A DNA stretch of 64,000 bases from a virus, in the IMG/VR virus record IMGVR_UViG_3300045988_074321, positions 1 through 64,000 of that record; one strand, 5' to 3'. Under the pieces are notes generated by a model that had not been told where the DNA came from, did no database searches, and saw only the letters and a program-made list of their open reading frames with translations. The position numbers were made by a program, and so were the translations under genes. Shown in pieces: positions 16,324 through 28,839 of this stretch (its first letter is position 1; the number at the start of each line of letters is the position of its first letter).

Positions 16324-16368
16324 GGACCTATAGCTCAGCCAGGTCAGAGCAGCTAATTATGAGTCAGA
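16324..16368 (+). other. 5' fragment of a tRNA gene (acceptor ggaccta + canonical D-arm TAGCTCAGCCAGGTCAGAGC) lacking an adjacent 3' half
   Basis: 7/7 complement (taggtcc) plus T-arm found 730 bp downstream at 17062..17103. Confidence 0.5.
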
Positions 16369-16369
16369 T

Positions 16370-16446
16370 AGGGACGTATCCCCTCAAGCTTATACCTTGT
16401 AGAAAGGGTAGTTGGTCGCACGTGGGTTCAAACCCCACCGTCCCTA
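16370..16446 (+). tRNA. tRNA-like gene with perfect acceptor (agggacg/cgtccct) and T-arm (gtggg-TTCAAAC-cccac) but aberrant D/anticodon arms (9-10 nt anticodon loop TTGTAGAAAG)
   Basis: hand-folding; anticodon not assignable. Confidence 0.4.
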
Positions 16447-16519
16447 CAACTTCTGGATTGAATTTTTAATTTTGCACCAAAACATTTGGTATTATGATTA
16501 TTTTCATATATATTTGTAT

Positions 16520-17068
16520 ATGAATTACAATGATTATAATACACAGAAGTTAAGAGGTTTAAAGCGCAAATTAGAGCTAGTAAAATCTCGTGGTGGTAAA
16601 TGTGAACTATGCGGCTATGATAGAAACATAGCTGTTCTAGAATTTCACCATATTAATCCAGATGAGAAAGAGTTTCAGTTAGATATGAGACATTTATCTA
16701 ATACAAGTCTAGAAAGGCTTAAAGAGGAAGCAGATAAATGTCAACTTCTATGCGCTAATTGTCATAGAGAAGTACATAACCCTCACTTGGGAATGGACGA
16801 AGTTGAAGATTTAGTTAATACTGAAGCTAAAGATAAGACGTCTTTTGAAAATATGACTGGGTCTGTATGCCCAGTATGCGGCAAAAGATTTCCTAAATCT
16901 AAGGGTAAGATATACTGTTCTAAGGAATGCAGAGATGCTGATAAACATTATCCTTCTCTAGAAGAAGTAAATGAGCAGTACGAAATACTTAAGAATTGGG
17001 AGAAAGTTGCTCAGCATTTTGGATTAACTCGCAGAGTTATTCAAGGAATAAGAAAGAAAGACTCATAA
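16520..17068 (+). CDS. HNH homing endonuclease
   Basis: ELCGYDRNIAVLEFHHINPDEKE ... LLCANCHREVH; first ATG at 16520 (track ORF starts inside tRNA-like sequence). Confidence 0.8.
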   Translation: MNYNDYNTQKLRGLKRKLELVKSRGGKCELCGYDRNIAVLEFHHINPDEKEFQLDMRHLSNTSLERLKEEADKCQLLCANCHREVHNPHLGMDEVEDLVNTEAKDKTSFENMTGSVCPVCGKRFPKSKGKIYCSKECRDADKHYPSLEEVNEQYEILKNWEKVAQHFGLTRRVIQGIRKKDS

Positions 17069-17103
17069 TCAGAAGGTCGGGGGTTCAAAGCCCTCTAGGT
17101 CCA
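17062..17103 (+). other. 3' fragment of a CAU-anticodon tRNA gene (loop CTCATAA, stem tcaga, variable aggtc, T-arm ggggg-TTCAAAG-ccctc, acceptor taggtcc)
   Basis: no matching 5' anticodon stem upstream; acceptor complements 16324 fragment. Confidence 0.5.
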
Positions 17104-17108
17104 CACTT

Positions 17109-20909: not shown

Positions 20910-21254
20910 ATGCGGAGTATTATTATGGCAGAATTGATTTTCTTAGCTAATGGAAAATGCGACTTGAAGTTCCACGCTCATCCCAAGAATTTCAAAAGGG
21001 TTGAGAAGTTCAACTACAAAAAGAACTTTTTCAAGGTTTACGTTGACCGAAACGACAGCGTTTACGAGATAACTCGCTGCGAGGTGGTTACATGGAAAAC
21101 CATAGAGAAAGGCAAGAAGAAATTTAACGTCCCTGACGAGGTGAAAGAAACTCGTGATGCTCACTTGTTTGACAAAATCAAGGGGAATCCGTTCAAAATC
21201 GCTATTACTAAGGTAGCTGGCGAGATTGATATGCAGGAGCTGTTATCTGAGTAA
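20910..21254 (+). CDS. hypothetical protein
   Basis: ORF track; hairpin ggagag/ctctcc 21263-21284 follows. Confidence 0.5.
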   Translation: MRSIIMAELIFLANGKCDLKFHAHPKNFKRVEKFNYKKNFFKVYVDRNDSVYEITRCEVVTWKTIEKGKKKFNVPDEVKETRDAHLFDKIKGNPFKIAITKVAGEIDMQELLSE

Positions 21255-21288
21255 TTCGTTTAGGAGAGTATCGTATAACTCTCCTTAT

Positions 21289-21363
21289 GCAGATGTGGTG
21301 TTAATGGTTTGAGCACGTCAGACTTCCAATCTGAAGGGGAGAGTTCGAGTCTCTCTATCTGCA
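21289..21363 (+). tRNA. tRNA-Gly (TCC)
   Basis: acceptor gcagatg/tatctgc, anticodon stem tcaga/tctga, loop CTTCCAA, T-arm gagag-TTCGAGT-ctctc. Confidence 0.8.
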
Positions 21364-21368
21364 CATTT

Positions 21369-21440
21369 GTAGGTATAGCACAACGGTTAGTGCATCGGCT
21401 TGCCATGCCGAGGATGTGAGTTCGATTCTCATTACCTACT
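21369..21440 (+). tRNA. tRNA-Gly (GCC)
   Basis: acceptor gtaggta/tacctac, D gcac/gtgc, anticodon stem tcggc/gccga, loop TTGCCAT. Confidence 0.8.
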
Positions 21441-21455
21441 CAAAATTTAAGTTTT

Positions 21456-21680
21456 ATGAAAATAAAGTGTACAGTATGTAATAAAGAATTTTATTATGGA
21501 GACCATAACTCTCCAATGTTTATTGATGAGGTTTGGAACAAGATAATAAATTACTTTAAGCTAACCAATTTTGAAAAAGAAGCTGCAAAGAAATTCTCCT
21601 CTTATTACAAAGGGGAGGTAAAGATTATTATCCAGACCACCATGTGTTTATCTGTAGCGAATGTGCGGAGAAGGCTCTAG
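21456..21680 (+). CDS. small Cys-containing hypothetical protein
   Basis: ORF track. Confidence 0.4.
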   Translation: MKIKCTVCNKEFYYGDHNSPMFIDEVWNKIINYFKLTNFEKEAAKKFSSYYKGEVKIIIQTTMCLSVANVRRRL

Positions 21681-21757
21681 GTAGGGAAATAACTGATAAG
21701 GATATTAATGATTCATTATTTAATATCCCATTTAGAGAGAAGTACTTTAAATCTTAA

Positions 21758-21842
21758 TATCCGTGTGGGTGAATGGTTTAGCCATCAGTCTGCAAAACTG
21801 AAAAGAGAAATCTTTAATGAGGGTTCGAATCCCTCCACGGAT
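21758..21842 (+). tRNA. type II (long variable arm, Ser-like D-arm) tRNA with anticodon GCA (Cys codons)
   Basis: acceptor atccgtg/cacggat, anticodon stem tcagt/actga, loop CTGCAAA, 17-nt variable arm with internal stem, T-arm gaggg-TTCGAAT-ccctc; D-arm nearly identical to tRNA-Ser(GCT) at 14899. Confidence 0.55.
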
Positions 21843-21863
21843 TCTAATTTTAAATTTAAAAAT

Positions 21864-22499
21864 ATGGCATATATTTATTGCATTACAAATTTAATTAATA
21901 GCAAGCGATACGTAGGAAAAACTACTACTTCTATAGAAGAGCGCTGGAAGGAACATTGTTATGACTTTTAGAAAGAAAGATGCAACAAAAGACCTTTATA
22001 TGATGCCATGAATAAGTATGGTGTTGAGAACTTTATGATAGAGGAATTGGAATATGTAGATAGTAACTCTGAATTATCTGAAAGAGAAATCTATTGGATA
22101 AAAGAGCTAGGAACTTATGGTTCTAATGGGTACAATGCCTCTAAAGGAGGAGATGGCACTATTCTATACAATCATAGTGAAATTGTAGAATTAGCTAGAT
22201 TGGGATATACTAGTTCTTAGATACAAGAAAAAATAGGGTGCTGTAAAGACACTATTTACAAAGTTTTGAAGGCAAATAATATAAAAATTAGAAAAAGTAA
22301 CGCAAAGTTAATTGCTTAGTATGACTTAGCAGGTAATTTTATACAGGTATTCTTTGGTTCCAGAGAAGCTTAGGAATGGTTAATTAATAACGGAATTACT
22401 GACAATAAATCTGCATAGAGTCATATTATAGGATGCTGTAAGAATAAAACCAAATCATAGTATGGCTATATTTGGAAATATCTTCCAGAGCCTATTTAA
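21864..22499 (+). CDS. GIY-YIG homing endonuclease with C-terminal HTH/DNA-binding repeats; 6 in-frame TAG codons (21969, 22218, 22317, 22371, 22416, 22458) read as sense
   Basis: MAYIYCITNLINSKRYVGKT..RW..H + NKYGVENF..EREIYWIKELGT..GYN aligns with I-TevI catalytic domain across the TAG; downstream YDLAGNFIQVFFGSREA-Q-EWLINNGI...YGYIWKY typical HE DNA-binding tail; track splits it into 21708..21971 and 22008..22220; true stop TAA 22497. Confidence 0.65.
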
Positions 22500-22645
22500 T
22501 CTTTAAATCACTGTTTCGACATTTTCAGTCTAAATGCCGTGTCTGGAGACGTTACCAACCAGTCGTGCTATACGGTTAGAATAGTCCGTGCCTCACTGGT
22601 GATAGAGGCATCCCTGGGTAGCGGATGTAAAGTAGCTGCCAATAT

Positions 22646-22724
22646 CGTGGAGTAGAGAAGTGGTCATCTCGCTAGGCTCATAACCTAGAAATCGTCATAA
22701 ACGGTTCGAATCCTACCTCCGCAA
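22646..22724 (+). tRNA. aberrant initiator-like tRNA-Met (CAT): intact acceptor (C1xA72 mismatch), D-arm and anticodon arm but defective/expanded T region
   Basis: cgtggag/ctccgca acceptor, gaga/tctc D-stem, ctagg-CTCATAA-cctag; 28 nt where 22 expected and no T-stem complement. Confidence 0.35.
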
Positions 22725-22968
22725 CGAAACTCCTTTTGTGGCTCTGAATTAGATTAATTATTAACAATTTTAAACTTTGATGTTATGAAGAAAGTAATTA
22801 ATGTTGTGAAGAAAGCTGCTAAGTGGTATTTTGAACAGAGTTCTAAGAGCTATACATGGTTAGTTTCTGGAACTATTCCGCCTCCTTATAGAGGTCTAGA
22901 GTAAAGATACTACTAAAAGGTAAGTACCAAAGGGGTACTTATCTACACCCGTGGAGAAAATTAACTAT

Positions 22969-23040
22969 TGGGGTATAGTTCAAAGGTCAGAACTTTTGAC
23001 TGTTAATCAAAGAATCATGGTTCGAGTCCATGTGCCCCAG
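22969..23040 (+). tRNA. tRNA-Asn (GTT)
   Basis: acceptor tggggta/tgcccca, D gttc/gaac, anticodon stem tttga/tcaaa, loop CTGTTAA, T-arm catgg-TTCGAGT-ccatg. Confidence 0.8.
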
Positions 23041-23569
23041 CTATTGACCTTATATTAGATTATGCATCAGTGTGATTATTGTTGTTGGTACTACAGTGGA
23101 AATTGTGATTGTCCATATGTAATGAAGAAACAAGCGTGTGAAAATGCTTTGAAAACTAAAGAGAGAAATGAAAGACCTATTAGAAAAGTACAAAATGTTT
23201 CAAACTCCAAAACTAGCTAATGAGATTTCATGGAAAGACATGAAGGAATTTAACTCTTATATGAAAGAAGTAGTTCGTGATTATAAGATTAAACAGGCTA
23301 AATCAATTCAGAGTGCTAGAAACGTAATAATATCCTGACCTGGCAAGGTAAAAATCCATTCGGGGTTTAAGTTGAAGCCAGTCCCTGCGGAATCATAAAG
23401 ACCTTTTCTGATACGATAGTCGATGAACTGAGAGAGTAGTATGGTTGCGGACTTATGCTACTAGAACATGATTTAAACAAAAAAAACTTATCTGGTGATG
23501 TTAGGTTATGGAATCCTAACAGTGGAAATTTATGAGTTATGTCACCAATTAAAAAGAAAATCTCAAACA

Positions 23570-24382: not shown

Positions 24383-24675
24383 GCGTAATACAACAGGTCT
24401 ACTTAGCTGAATCAGGCAGTTCTATTTACATAAAGGGGATTAAACCTGATAAAGAGAATGAATATTCTGGTGAGATTACTCTAAACGGTAATCCCACTAG
24501 ATTAGAGAGAAAAGAACGTTACCATATAAGTAACGGTATGCTTGTTACAGATAGTTATCATATCCCTATGGAGTTCATTATTAGCTTCTTGCAGGCTAAC
24601 GGATGTGTTCAAGAAGGAGAAGATGGCAAGTCGTATGTTGTTTTAAGAGAAGTAGAATTTAAATTGAATAACTAA
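24379..24675 (+). CDS. hypothetical protein
   Basis: ORF track. Confidence 0.5.
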   Translation: MSVIQQVYLAESGSSIYIKGIKPDKENEYSGEITLNGNPTRLERKERYHISNGMLVTDSYHIPMEFIISFLQANGCVQEGEDGKSYVVLREVEFKLNN

Positions 24676-25256
24676 TGTTATCAGTATTATATAGCGAATA
24701 TGAGCTGTGGGGTTGTCCTAATTGTGGGTGCGATTCCGTTATAAGTAGTGGAGTTTCTGGAGGAGGTCTAACATCTGGAACTTGTAGACATTGCAAGTTA
24801 AAATTTGAAGTTAGAAGCGAAAATCCAATGGGAATAGTCAAATATGGCTGCCATCCAGAAAATCCCTCAGACCCGAAATCTAAATGGGTTATGGAAAGCG
24901 CAATCAGAATTGAACATCCTAGAAAAGGTATTCCTGCATGGAATTGGGAACCAGTTGACGAACGTCCAGAAGAAGGAGAATATTGGAACTCTCGTGGTCC
25001 TGGCTATCCAGATGTTTCTGGCTTTGTAAAGACCAAAGCTGCTGGTGAGCGTATTCTAGCTATGGTGCATGAAGTGTTAGGAACTGACAAGTGTAAGACT
25101 TATCTAGATTTCAGACCAAGTGAACCAACGTGGATTCAATTCAAATTTCATAAAGACGAGTTTGATATAGAGAAACTAGATTCTCTTACTCGTGATAGTG
25201 GAATAATTACTAAAGACATAATCAAACAATGTATTTATGGCAAAAGTAGTAAATAG
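24675..25256 (+). CDS. hypothetical protein with N-terminal zinc ribbon
   Basis: CPNCGC...CRHC. Confidence 0.5.
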   Translation: MLSVLYSEYELWGCPNCGCDSVISSGVSGGGLTSGTCRHCKLKFEVRSENPMGIVKYGCHPENPSDPKSKWVMESAIRIEHPRKGIPAWNWEPVDERPEEGEYWNSRGPGYPDVSGFVKTKAAGERILAMVHEVLGTDKCKTYLDFRPSEPTWIQFKFHKDEFDIEKLDSLTRDSGIITKDIIKQCIYGKSSK

Positions 25257-25488
25257 GGCCTCTGATATAATCCAACTTAAAGACCTAAAGGATGGGGAAT
25301 TTGCAGAAGTGATAGAATGGTTTGAGGATGGAACAGTATCTAACGGAGATATAATTCAAAGATGTGGACTTGCACTATTTATATTAGGAAGTTGTTCTTA
25401 CTATCCTGAGATATTTAGTAAGGGTGCTAGAGACTATACTAATACTAAGTTACGGACACTACCTGAGGGTACAACTATAATGTTATAA
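25237..25488 (+). CDS. hypothetical protein
   Basis: ORF track. Confidence 0.4.
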   Translation: MAKVVNRASDIIQLKDLKDGEFAEVIEWFEDGTVSNGDIIQRCGLALFILGSCSYYPEIFSKGARDYTNTKLRTLPEGTTIML

Positions 25489-25528: not shown

Positions 25529-26090
25529 GGGCCTACTTGGATTTGACAGGCGATTACAAATTATAAGGACGTGTAGAGCGCAATCTCTTTAAACGAAGAA
25601 AAAACAATAAATGCTACTTATAGCGAAGTAAGAATGGCAGCCTAAGCTGCTGGCTTGTTGGTAAACACTATTAACTAAGTCGGGTTACGGGAGAGACCTA
25701 GAAACAGAAGAGGTTGAGTATATTGATATAATGGAGAGCTAGGCTCTAATCCTAGTAATATGCTCTTAATCAGAACACTCTAAGAGTTAGTAAGACTGAA
25801 TCTCCTACGTCATAAAACAGATGGAAGATGTGTTCCGTGAGATGTGACGAATCTCTAAAGTATCATCCCGTTCTCCAACGTAAATGGAGTGGTGGAACGT
25901 TGACTTCGGTCAGCCCTATAGTTTGGTAGCTTGTAGATAAGCATCTAGAGAAATACTTAGTATGGACTCTTGTAAGACTTATAAAACTACCTAAATGCTA
26001 GAACTCCCTAGCTGATATAATAAAAATGAGACGCACGTTATCCTTGTAACGAGGGTTGTTTGGACACGGGTTCGACTCCCGTTAGGTCCA
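25529..26090 (+). ncRNA. ssrA: tmRNA (SsrA); tag reading frame 25613..25645 encoding ATYSEVRMAA-stop
   Basis: 5' GGGCCTACTTGGATTTGACAGG parallels E. coli ssrA 5' end; resume GCT preceded by A-rich AAAAAACAATAAAT; tag ends AA+TAA; 3' GGACACGGGTTCGACTCCCGTTAGGTCCA T-arm/acceptor pairing with 5' gggccta; 560-bp ORF-free interval. Confidence 0.7.
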
Positions 26091-26096
26091 CATAAT

Positions 26097-27086: not shown

Positions 27087-27761
27087 ATGACTAGATTAGA
27101 AAAGTATTTAGTAGCAACTGCTACTGAGATTATCGAAGCGGAAACAACTGTTTCTCGCTACTTTGTCATTGGAAACGTCAAAGTTAGAGTATCAGACCAT
27201 TTAAGTAAAATGAGTGATGCAGACTTACAAGTGATTATTCCATTGAACGGAGGGACTAAGTATATAGTTACTGTTAAGGATAGTCCTGGAAAATTTCTTG
27301 TATGGAATGCAACTCAAATAAAAGACTTTATTCCTTCATTGCAGATTATTAAGGGCTTGAAGGAAGGAGTACAACTTAAGCCAAAACCTAAAGACTCTGC
27401 AGTTCAGAAGATTCAGCTAGCATTAAATAATAGTAATACCGATGGAGGTTCGTTAACGTTCGATGGTACTATTATCGAGTCTAGATTGAAAGAAAAGCAA
27501 CTTACCTCTAAACAGCGGGAAGTTTTCAGGAGAACTAAATCTACTTGGGATATTTCTCAGATTGGAACATTACCCAGTATGATTAAAGTAGATTTGGGAT
27601 TGTCAAATGGTTCTGTAAACGAAGATGTGCAGATATTTCTAACTTGTACATCTTTAACCTACAAAGAAATTCTGAACATTTATAAAATAATAGTTGTTGA
27701 TAACCATATGGTTCCAACTATTAAACTGTTGCAAGAAGCTTATAGCTTAATTGTGCAGTAG
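27087..27761 (+). CDS. hypothetical protein
   Basis: ORF track. Confidence 0.55.
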   Translation: MTRLEKYLVATATEIIEAETTVSRYFVIGNVKVRVSDHLSKMSDADLQVIIPLNGGTKYIVTVKDSPGKFLVWNATQIKDFIPSLQIIKGLKEGVQLKPKPKDSAVQKIQLALNNSNTDGGSLTFDGTIIESRLKEKQLTSKQREVFRRTKSTWDISQIGTLPSMIKVDLGLSNGSVNEDVQIFLTCTSLTYKEILNIYKIIVVDNHMVPTIKLLQEAYSLIVQ

Positions 27762-27764
27762 GAT

Positions 27765-27836
27765 AGCGCCATCATCTAATGGTTAGGATTCAGGCTTTTC
27801 ACGCCTGCCATACGGGTTCGAATCCCGTTGGCGTTA
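27765..27836 (+). tRNA. tRNA-Glu (TTC)
   Basis: acceptor agcgcca/tggcgtt, anticodon stem caggc/gcctg, loop TTTTCAC, T-arm acggg-TTCGAAT-cccgt. Confidence 0.8.
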
Positions 27837-28217: not shown

Positions 28218-28643
28218 ATGAAAACGTTAAATGAGATTTTAGACAATTACAAAGACTATGCCGTAGTTCTCGATGACCGTTTCGGTTCTAGATTAGCAAA
28301 GTTTTTAACAGAAGAGCAGTTAGAAAAAATAGGCTTCAAGTACGATGGTGATGAGCCTTATCCAGAGCCTAAGGAATGGACTAGAGAGAATATCCTAGAG
28401 CAACTTAAGTCTGACGTGGAGTTTGGTTTTGAGAAGGCTCTAGACCAGAGAGGCATTTCAGCTAGCCTAATGTTCTACGTGGTACTAAGGTGGAATCAAG
28501 TTCTAGAAGAGGGCTTAGAGAATTATCCTGAAGAGAATTATGCTATGTATGGGTTGCCTTTGTTTAAGGCTACTGCTGTAAAGTATGGATGGGAGAATCC
28601 TATAGGCGACGATAATGGGGACGAAGAGTTCTACAATGAGTAG
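28218..28643 (+). CDS. hypothetical protein
   Basis: ORF track. Confidence 0.5.
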   Translation: MKTLNEILDNYKDYAVVLDDRFGSRLAKFLTEEQLEKIGFKYDGDEPYPEPKEWTRENILEQLKSDVEFGFEKALDQRGISASLMFYVVLRWNQVLEEGLENYPEENYAMYGLPLFKATAVKYGWENPIGDDNGDEEFYNE

Positions 28644-28839
28644 CGCTATGAAGGAATCTTCTATACTTAAAGCAATTTCTGACGCTATTGAAGAATACGA
28701 GGAAAATCAACAAAGACGAATAGACCTGTTAGAGAGTAAAATTCTGCTATTTGAGAGAGAAAGGGAGGCTTTTATTCGGCATTTGAGAGAAGGAAACATT
28801 CAATTATTAAAGGATTATCTAGGAATTAAAGATGAGTAA
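28615..28839 (+). CDS. hypothetical protein
   Basis: ORF track. Confidence 0.4.
   Translation: MGTKSSTMSSAMKESSILKAISDAIEEYEENQQRRIDLLESKILLFEREREAFIRHLREGNIQLLKDYLGIKDE

Follow-up and report, generated by a model that had tools for sequence, protein, structure and literature searches.

In phage T4, the homing endonuclease gene segB lies between the genes for tRNA-Arg and tRNA-Ile, and its product targets a tRNA intergenic region and drives the preferred inheritance of the tRNA region (PMC2988022). SegB and I-TevI, the endonuclease of the T4 td intron, are both translated late, and their early transcripts hide the ribosome-binding site in a hairpin (PMC2988022). Another form of control has been put forward for phages that reassign a stop codon: Borges et al. 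(bioRxiv 10.1101/2021.08.26.457843) reported preferential TGA use by an endonuclease whose group I intron lies in an early gene of Agate phages, and already proposed stop-codon gating for this TGA-recoded enzyme. Here we describe a GIY-YIG homing endonuclease gene with six in-frame TAG codons in the tRNA cluster of a crAss-like gut phage. It occupies positions 21864–22499 (+) of the first 64,000 nucleotides of IMG/VR virus record IMGVR_UViG_3300045988_074321, the whole stretch of DNA that was analyzed and that we refer to as the window. Taking the parts together, we consider it quite probable that the gene is intact, that its TAGs are translated as Gln through a phage-encoded tRNA(CUA), that the full-length enzyme appears late in infection, and that the gene is part of a mobile cassette.

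The resemblance to T4 SegB is one of arrangement. Both are free-standing GIY-YIG genes between tRNA genes, and in our phage alleles that carry the gene and alleles that lack it have different tRNA genes at their flanks. The T4 delay relies on a late promoter and on masking of the ribosome-binding site by an RNA hairpin, whereas here we propose that six reassigned stop codons would serve instead; the phage lineage and the host group differ as well, and the two systems are likened by description, not by sequence. With I-TevI the predicted enzyme shares the catalytic fold and residues, a modular build with a C-terminal DNA-binding region, and, as proposed here, a translational delay until late infection. 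I-TevI differs in being intron-encoded by a gene without reassigned codons, and the DNA-binding region of our enzyme gives only sub-threshold helix-turn-helix (HTH) and NUMOD1 matches, its sole structural match beyond the catalytic domain being I-HmuI.

The Agate endonuclease is alike in carrying reassigned stops in frame and in lying within an early gene or region in a recoded phage. It uses TGA-to-Trp recoding (code 4), is intron-encoded and belongs to another clade, whereas the present gene uses TAG-to-Gln recoding (code 15) and is free-standing among the tRNA genes of a crAss-like phage. In the Agate case the preference for the recoded stop is significant; here it is significant relative to neighboring genes but not relative to late genes. 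Among crAss-like phages, the zeta group (Echekviridae proposal, 2025, PMC12386605) carries suppressor tRNAs and homing endonuclease open reading frames (ORFs) that vary between close relatives. The window shares with that group a forward block that combines tRNA genes with genes of nucleic-acid metabolism, a virion block in reverse orientation, and TAG-terminated ORFs with a second stop nearby, and it is likened to the group by this layout and by terminase similarity (26–29% identity to crAss-like terminases) only. The proposal reports no TAG codons inside endonuclease genes, and its phage Lera uses TGA suppression, with no amber use. Recoding and stop-gated homing endonucleases have thus both been described before, and the present case is not conceptually new.

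Gene structure and predicted protein

The endonuclease frame opens with an ATG at 21864 and closes with a TAA stop at 22497–22499, giving 211 codons. Before that terminal TAA, no in-frame TAA or TGA occurs inside 21864–22499, and mononucleotide shuffling of the endonuclease region yielded, in 20,000 trials, no sequence free of both triplets. The interruptions are six TAGs, at codons 36, 119, 152, 170, 185 and 199 (TAG 1 to TAG 6; Table 1), besides which the gene holds two CAA/CAG codons. A standard-code ORF list splits the frame into an 87-aa piece from an ATG at 21708 and a 70-aa piece at 22008–22220. The upstream in-frame ATG extends the gene across an 86-nt tRNA(GCA), an overlap that had been pointed out before and that we confirm, and the database protein P0001 (263 aa) is a gene-caller product using this start. 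All homologues other than P0001 open with M-[GA]-Y-I-Y, matching 21864, and because they begin in this way we take 21864 to be the true start codon. Termination at TAG 1 leaves a 35-residue peptide that does not reach the Glu aligned to I-TevI E75. The locus is therefore an annotation pitfall: standard-code callers yield fragments of 35–87 aa and 70 aa, or extend the gene across a tRNA.

Translated with TAG as Gln, the protein matches Pfam PF01541 (GIY-YIG) over residues 1–91 (E=6e-13; 49.3 bits against a cut-off of 22.6) and PHROG 314 ('homing endonuclease') over residues 1–206 (E=4e-31). The frame and both matches agree with the claim of an earlier note on this DNA that a GIY-YIG gene among tRNA genes requires the decoding of six TAGs. 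Its assertion that the catalytic domain aligns with I-TevI across the first TAG also holds: the match to the I-TevI catalytic domain (PDB 1MK0/1LN0) covers residues 4–93 (E=1.4e-9) and runs straight across TAG 1. The motifs Y-I-Y (residues 3–5) and Y-V-G (residues 16–18) align with GIY and YVG of I-TevI, and the two positions mutated in its crystal constructs pair with R27 and E75. These two residues, together with H31 and N91, do not vary among 43 homologues. The same note had placed both an HTH and a YGYIWKY tail beyond five further TAGs. The tail does follow TAG 6, at the end of a putative NUMOD1-like domain, and the HTH contains TAG 2.

Structure prediction gave a consistent picture. The AlphaFold model was built on P0001, a near-identical database protein that carries a spurious 52-residue N-terminal extension, and comprises three folded parts: the GIY-YIG domain (predicted local distance difference test score, pLDDT, mostly 74–88), a three-helix HTH, and a C-terminal beta-beta-alpha-alpha-beta domain (pLDDT 91–97) that holds four of the six TAG positions. 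Searching with the predicted structure, Foldseek returned I-TevI 1LN0 as the top match (template modeling score 0.82, target-normalized; root-mean-square deviation 2.6; probability 1.0; 36% identity) and the DNA-binding part of I-HmuI 1U3E as the next (probability 0.99).

Database searches recovered 994 homologues at E<=1e-10. By tblastn, homologues in standard-code Enterococcus and Staphylococcus phages, which their depositors name SegB-like or intron-associated endonucleases, align at 31–34% identity over 97–98% of the length. This shows that the similarity of the C-terminal part is genuine and in frame. Together these results mark the gene as an intact, free-standing member of the I-TevI/Seg type of GIY-YIG endonucleases, with homing as its predicted function.

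Glutamine at TAG codons across the genome and the family

The source phage has a genome of about 146–187 kb. A protein from the left end of the window retrieved contigs of about 186 kb that continue past the window start. We counted codons of late genes in strain L085, using five consecutive genes within 10 kb to the left of the window start. In-frame TAGs are abundant there, with 16 in a 438-aa protein, 20 in the 788-aa large terminase and 20 in the portal, and none of these late genes contains an in-frame TAA or TGA. Across the five genes TAG accounts for about half of the Gln codons (61/126). The window encodes the suppressor tRNA(CUA) that had been assumed earlier. It is 71% identical to the tRNA-Gln(UUG) of the window, its best match among 13 other window tRNAs compared, and by eye the two share a U1:A72 pair and the D-arm; we presume it to be the TAG decoder. 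TAG is thus reassigned to Gln at the level of the genome (code 15) and is heavily used in late genes. Where the endonuclease had been described in terms of read-through, the need for TAG decoding stands, but occasional read-through gives way to this reassignment.

The window itself covers the nucleotide-metabolism and replication arm, with NrdD, nicotinamide phosphoribosyltransferase, helicases and a primase, and contains at least 26 tRNAs plus a transfer-messenger RNA (tmRNA). A census of all ORFs of at least 100 codons, delimited by TAA and TGA only, found 53 ORFs (11,130 codons, 335 of them CAA/CAG) with zero TAG. In the remaining ORFs the TAGs fall before the likely start or in the last ten codons, two endonuclease genes excepted. 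In these two, the GIY-YIG gene and a PD-(D/E)XK gene described below, TAG makes up 9 of the 11 Gln codons, compared with 0 of 335 in the 53 ORFs (Fisher p=3e-16). A similar contrast appears at 16 other code-15 loci, where the neighboring ORFs, some of them probably spurious, hold 45 TAG and 504 CAA/CAG, compared with 72 TAG and 87 CAA/CAG in 18 TAG-bearing homologue genes.

To read individual TAG positions we aligned 44 non-redundant homologues recovered with DNA; database proteins write TAG and CAA/CAG alike as Q. Relatives carry Gln codons or further TAGs in the TAG columns rather than unrelated sequence. The clearest column is 152, which is an invariant Q in the 43-protein alignment, is Gln in 31 of 40 other homologues and is TAG in four sequences including that of the window. 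Column 36 is TAG in L009, L014, L016 and L017 and CAA/CAG in L008; column 119 is TAG in L009 and CAA/CAG in L008 and L014, and no fewer than 90% of the 43 closest proteins have Gln there; column 170 is TAG also in L009 and mostly Ala in distant homologues. Swaps between TAG and CAA/CAG occur at positions 36, 119, 152 and 161 (window, L002, L008, L009), and Gln is 2.6-fold enriched in TAG-holding columns. Column 185 is variable (S/R/K/Q), and column 199 is mostly Ala; in the closest relatives compared it is either Cys or Ala. The expectation that TAG columns are Gln in homologues is therefore borne out in part: Gln is strongly conserved at one of the six positions (152) and is present in most of the closest relatives at 36, 119 and 170 (database-protein consensus), but not at 185 and 199.

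Selection acts on the frame beyond the TAGs. Downstream of TAG 1 and TAG 2, eight comparisons with non-chimeric homologues gave proportions of nonsynonymous differences (pN) of 0.20–0.38 against proportions of synonymous differences (pS) of 0.60–0.86; synonymous sites are saturated in most comparisons, and we limit the claim to pN being far below pS, without a dN/dS ratio. This pattern indicates that the frame is translated and under selection downstream of the TAGs. Homing endonuclease genes often decay, and the six TAGs might be nonsense mutations in a pseudogene; one relative (L031) is indeed frameshifted, another (L014) has one in-frame TGA, and a zinc-ribbon (Zn-ribbon) ORF adjoining the gene is frameshifted in the window strain. 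We regard this explanation as extremely improbable. All six stops are TAG, although TAA is the commonest stop triplet in the window, and the gene has no frameshifts; across the 18 non-redundant TAG-carrying homologues there are 72 TAG, one TGA and no TAA. The residues R27, H31, E75 and N91 are conserved. Copies in other assemblies (L001, L004–L007, L093) keep all six TAGs at identical positions, the database cluster of the protein has 267 member sequences, and the terminase and portal of the same phage manage with 20 TAGs each.

We also considered that TAG might specify an amino acid other than Gln, or that only standard-code fragments such as the 70-aa ORF are made. ARAGORN labels the tRNA(CUA) 'Pyl', E, K or A prevails over Q in several TAG columns, and in L035 (4001–4642) two conserved Tyr positions hold TAGs, suggesting either another reassignment or decay in that sequence. 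Against this, the tRNA(CUA) resembles the phage tRNA-Gln, and TAG occupies two Gln sites, invariant column 152 and the first position of the PD-(D/E)XK 'QVK' motif. Peters et al. 2022 (PMC9523058) present metaproteomic evidence for the use of code 15 by two crAss-like phages. Separate fragments would part the catalytic residues from the DNA-binding domain. Readings of this kind therefore seem very unlikely, and the comparisons point to all six TAGs being Gln sense codons.

Several further observations concern stop codons in these phages. In the homologue L028 (4001–4630), from a different phage, four conserved Trp positions are in-frame TGA codons, which fits a code-4 phage; the endonuclease family therefore appears to adopt the code of its resident genome. 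In the window, the few early ORFs that end in TAG (2876–3343, 24675–25265, 27087–27779 and 28218–28670, all +) have a TAA or TGA 2–8 codons beyond, and such backup stops would contain the harm done by late TAG suppression. The stretch 4963–5266 (+) holds a RAGATH-14 RNA (156.6 bits), followed 26 nt later by a tRNA(UUA) of ochre-suppressor type; this tRNA has a Gln-like U1:A72 pair by eye, yet the late genes examined contain no in-frame TAA.

The endonuclease cassette within the tRNA cluster

The endonuclease gene is the last part of a polymorphic 1.1-kb cassette that begins at the 3' end of a tRNA-Gly and also contains the Zn-ribbon ORF and the tRNA(GCA). This tRNA has a long variable arm, is separated by 19 nt from the start codon of the endonuclease gene, shows U73 as its discriminator by our reading by eye, and is closest in its body to the window's tRNA-Ser(GCU) (64% identity). 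In the Zn-ribbon ORF, a frameshift at a G-run is shared by the window and L093, whose sequences are 100% identical there; L004 has the ORF intact (100 aa). The protein encoded just upstream of the cassette is found in thousands of assemblies.

In six strains (L090, L091, L094, L095, L096, L098), homology to the window ends at 21441 and resumes at 22538. Instead of the 1,096 bp of the window they have about 280 bp with two other tRNA genes, a 76-nt tRNA(GCA) and a 'tRNA-Tyr(ATA)' call. Alleles with and without the gene are 98% identical in the left flank and 89% in the right flank. The right-flank differences are concentrated in the first ~110 nt past the junction (22538–22645), a conserved stretch upstream of tRNA-Met, and such a pattern would fit co-conversion or target-site immunity. 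The stretch 22538–22645 has no Rfam match and no unusual folding energy, and the interval 22500–22730 likewise has no energy support for a structured RNA (folding z-score 0.01).

Duplication and recombination are also evident. In L093 (4955–6535) two paralogous GIY-YIG genes, with six and three TAGs, lie in tandem and flank tRNA-Met; the second paralogue, on the far side of tRNA-Met, is present in strain L097 as well. Chimeras of the two paralogue types occur in L017 (4001–4636), in L089 (4948–5583), which has lost the intervening tRNA-Met, and in the database protein P0019. Because it is absent from close strains and has formed chimeras with a paralogue, we conclude from these comparisons that the cassette behaves as mobile DNA.

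Alternatively, the endonuclease gene might be the passenger of a self-splicing intron in a tRNA gene. Such an arrangement has a possible parallel nearby: an ORF for an HNH endonuclease in the same cluster sits in a 705-bp insertion (16355–17059) that splits a tRNA-Met(CAT) gene (16324–17105, +). However, the tRNAs on both sides of the GIY-YIG gene (21759–21844 and 22646–22725) are complete, and gene-free strains carry different whole tRNA genes at the site rather than a rejoined tRNA. A group I or group II intron host was searched for and rejected, with no Rfam match at the gathering threshold in the whole window or at E<=1 in 21200–23200. We judge an intron origin very doubtful; by its flanks the gene appears free-standing between two complete tRNA genes, with an unrecognized intron type conceivable.

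Two other endonucleases reside in the tRNA cluster. The PD-(D/E)XK gene, of the I-Ssp6803I family, has three in-frame TAGs and no CAA/CAG; its codon 56, a TAG, falls opposite the Q of 'QVK' in I-Ssp6803I (2OST), and its position varies among strains (L085 versus L087, for example). The insertion with the HNH ORF also holds a tRNA-like element without a D-arm (16370–16446) and has no match to an Rfam intron family; the tRNA-Met that it splits is uninterrupted in L004 and L090. At the contig end, window positions 1–47 are a Nextera transposase adapter (TCGTCGGCAGCGTCAGATGTGTATAAGAGACAG), which is untrimmed library sequence and not phage DNA.

Table 1. Positions of the endonuclease gene, its TAG codons and domains, and associated features in the window.
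Feature	Position	Strand	Basis
GIY-YIG homing endonuclease gene, code 15	21864..22499	+	Translation; PHROG 314; full-length homologues in standard-code phages
TAG 1, codon 36, within catalytic domain	21969..21971	+	Translation, I-TevI alignment
TAG 2, codon 119, within HTH	22218..22220	+	Translation
TAG 3, codon 152, nearly invariant Gln of C-terminal domain	22317..22319	+	Homologue alignment
TAG 4, codon 170, C-terminal domain	22371..22373	+	Homologue alignment
TAG 5, codon 185, C-terminal domain	22416..22418	+	Homologue alignment
TAG 6, codon 199, immediately before YGYIWKY	22458..22460	+	Homologue alignment
GIY-YIG catalytic domain, residues 1-91	21864..22136	+	Pfam PF01541, I-TevI alignment, invariant columns, Foldseek
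HTH, residues 104-137	22173..22274	+	Sub-threshold Pfam HTH_23, HTH_28, HTH_7; three helices in model
NUMOD1-like C-terminal DNA-binding domain, residues 148-206, ends YGYIWKY	22305..22481	+	Weak Pfam NUMOD1, model, Foldseek
Polymorphic 1.1-kb cassette: Zn-ribbon ORF, class II tRNA(GCA), endonuclease gene	21442..22537	+	blastn breakpoints, tRNA content, alignment
tRNA-Gly(GCC), 3' end is left cassette border	21369..21441	+	ARAGORN, blastn
Zn-ribbon ORF (CxxC...CxxC) of cassette	21456..21757	+	ORF list
tRNA(GCA), 86 nt, long variable arm	21759..21844	+	ARAGORN; Rfam tRNA 56.3 bits
tRNA-Met(CAT) downstream of endonuclease gene	22646..22725	+	ARAGORN
Suppressor tRNA(CUA), Gln-like, presumed TAG decoder	1939..2011	-	ARAGORN; Rfam 66.3 bits
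PD-(D/E)XK endonuclease, I-Ssp6803I family, between tRNA-Lys and tRNA-Pro	8114..8575	+	Pfam PDDEXK_5 E=2e-23
HNH endonuclease ORF, no TAG	16522..17068	+	PHROG 2255 E=7e-26
tmRNA, phage-encoded, within tRNA cluster	25529..26093	+	Rfam 62.6 bits

Proposed timing of endonuclease expression

The start codon lies 19 nt past a tRNA and no convincing promoter was found, so the gene is probably co-transcribed with the tRNA cluster. A scan of 21200–23000 for sigma-70 promoters and terminators was uninformative: it returned 10 promoter-like sites against 6.6 expected, with Bacteroidota-type promoters not modeled, and its terminator-like matches included tRNA acceptor and T-arm segments. Co-transcription would leave translation as the controlling step. 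Early in infection, ribosomes that still terminate at TAG would release the 35-residue fragment, which lacks E75 and all DNA-binding parts and should be inactive. Full-length enzyme would emerge once suppression is established, alongside the late proteins. It would then cut gene-free alleles in or near the tRNA-Gly/tRNA-Met interval, and recombinational repair would copy the gene in and carry flanking tRNA sequence along, as for T4 SegB. Control of timing or toxicity, which the earlier note had suggested, would follow from this coding pattern and is consistent with published precedent.

The same decoding might, however, serve no regulatory purpose. The TAGs could be passive, late-style codon drift in an endonuclease family long resident in code-15 genomes: if the enzyme is dispensable, or useful only with replicated genomes, there would be no selection against CAG-to-TAG changes. 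We regard this as a real but lesser possibility, and several findings speak for it and weigh against timing control. The family uses TAG for 72 of 159 Gln codons (45%), about the share in late genes (61/126, 48%; Fisher p=0.63); this gives no hint that extra TAGs are selected for, and an enrichment of TAG in the family over late genes is unsupported. Positions 170, 185 and 199 are not Gln in most distant homologues, and TAG positions vary widely among homologues, often in variable columns. The neighboring HNH ORF has no TAG among its six Gln codons, so gating is not universal among the selfish nucleases here. The suggestion of timing control thus stands as consistent with the coding pattern and is tempered by the HNH gene and by this possible passive origin. 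On the other side, the pattern recurs at many independent loci whose neighboring genes all avoid TAG, and the two window endonucleases use TAG more than late genes do (9/11 versus 48%), a marginal difference (p=0.056). T4 delays endonuclease translation by several independent mechanisms, suggesting that delay is selected (PMC2988022).

Delayed translation of a TAG-bearing endonuclease, as we propose for this gene, may be part of a wider pattern. We tentatively suggest, as an idea that we think has less than even chances, that in code-15 gut phages, crAss-like phages included, selfish endonucleases in early modules are systematically locked by stop codons until replicated targets exist, and that their cassettes bring replacement tRNAs with them, in this phage the unusual long-arm tRNA(GCA). 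The case extends the idea of stop-codon-gated endonucleases from TGA-recoded, intron-encoded enzymes to TAG-recoded, free-standing ones, in a phage present in thousands of human gut samples. Expression of the gene should depend entirely on the change of code that the phage makes in mid-infection. As it encodes a short, non-essential enzyme with assayable activity, it could act as a natural reporter for the timing and efficiency of TAG suppression. If the wider suggestion is true, endonuclease homing would drive the turnover of tRNA repertoires in code-15 phages.

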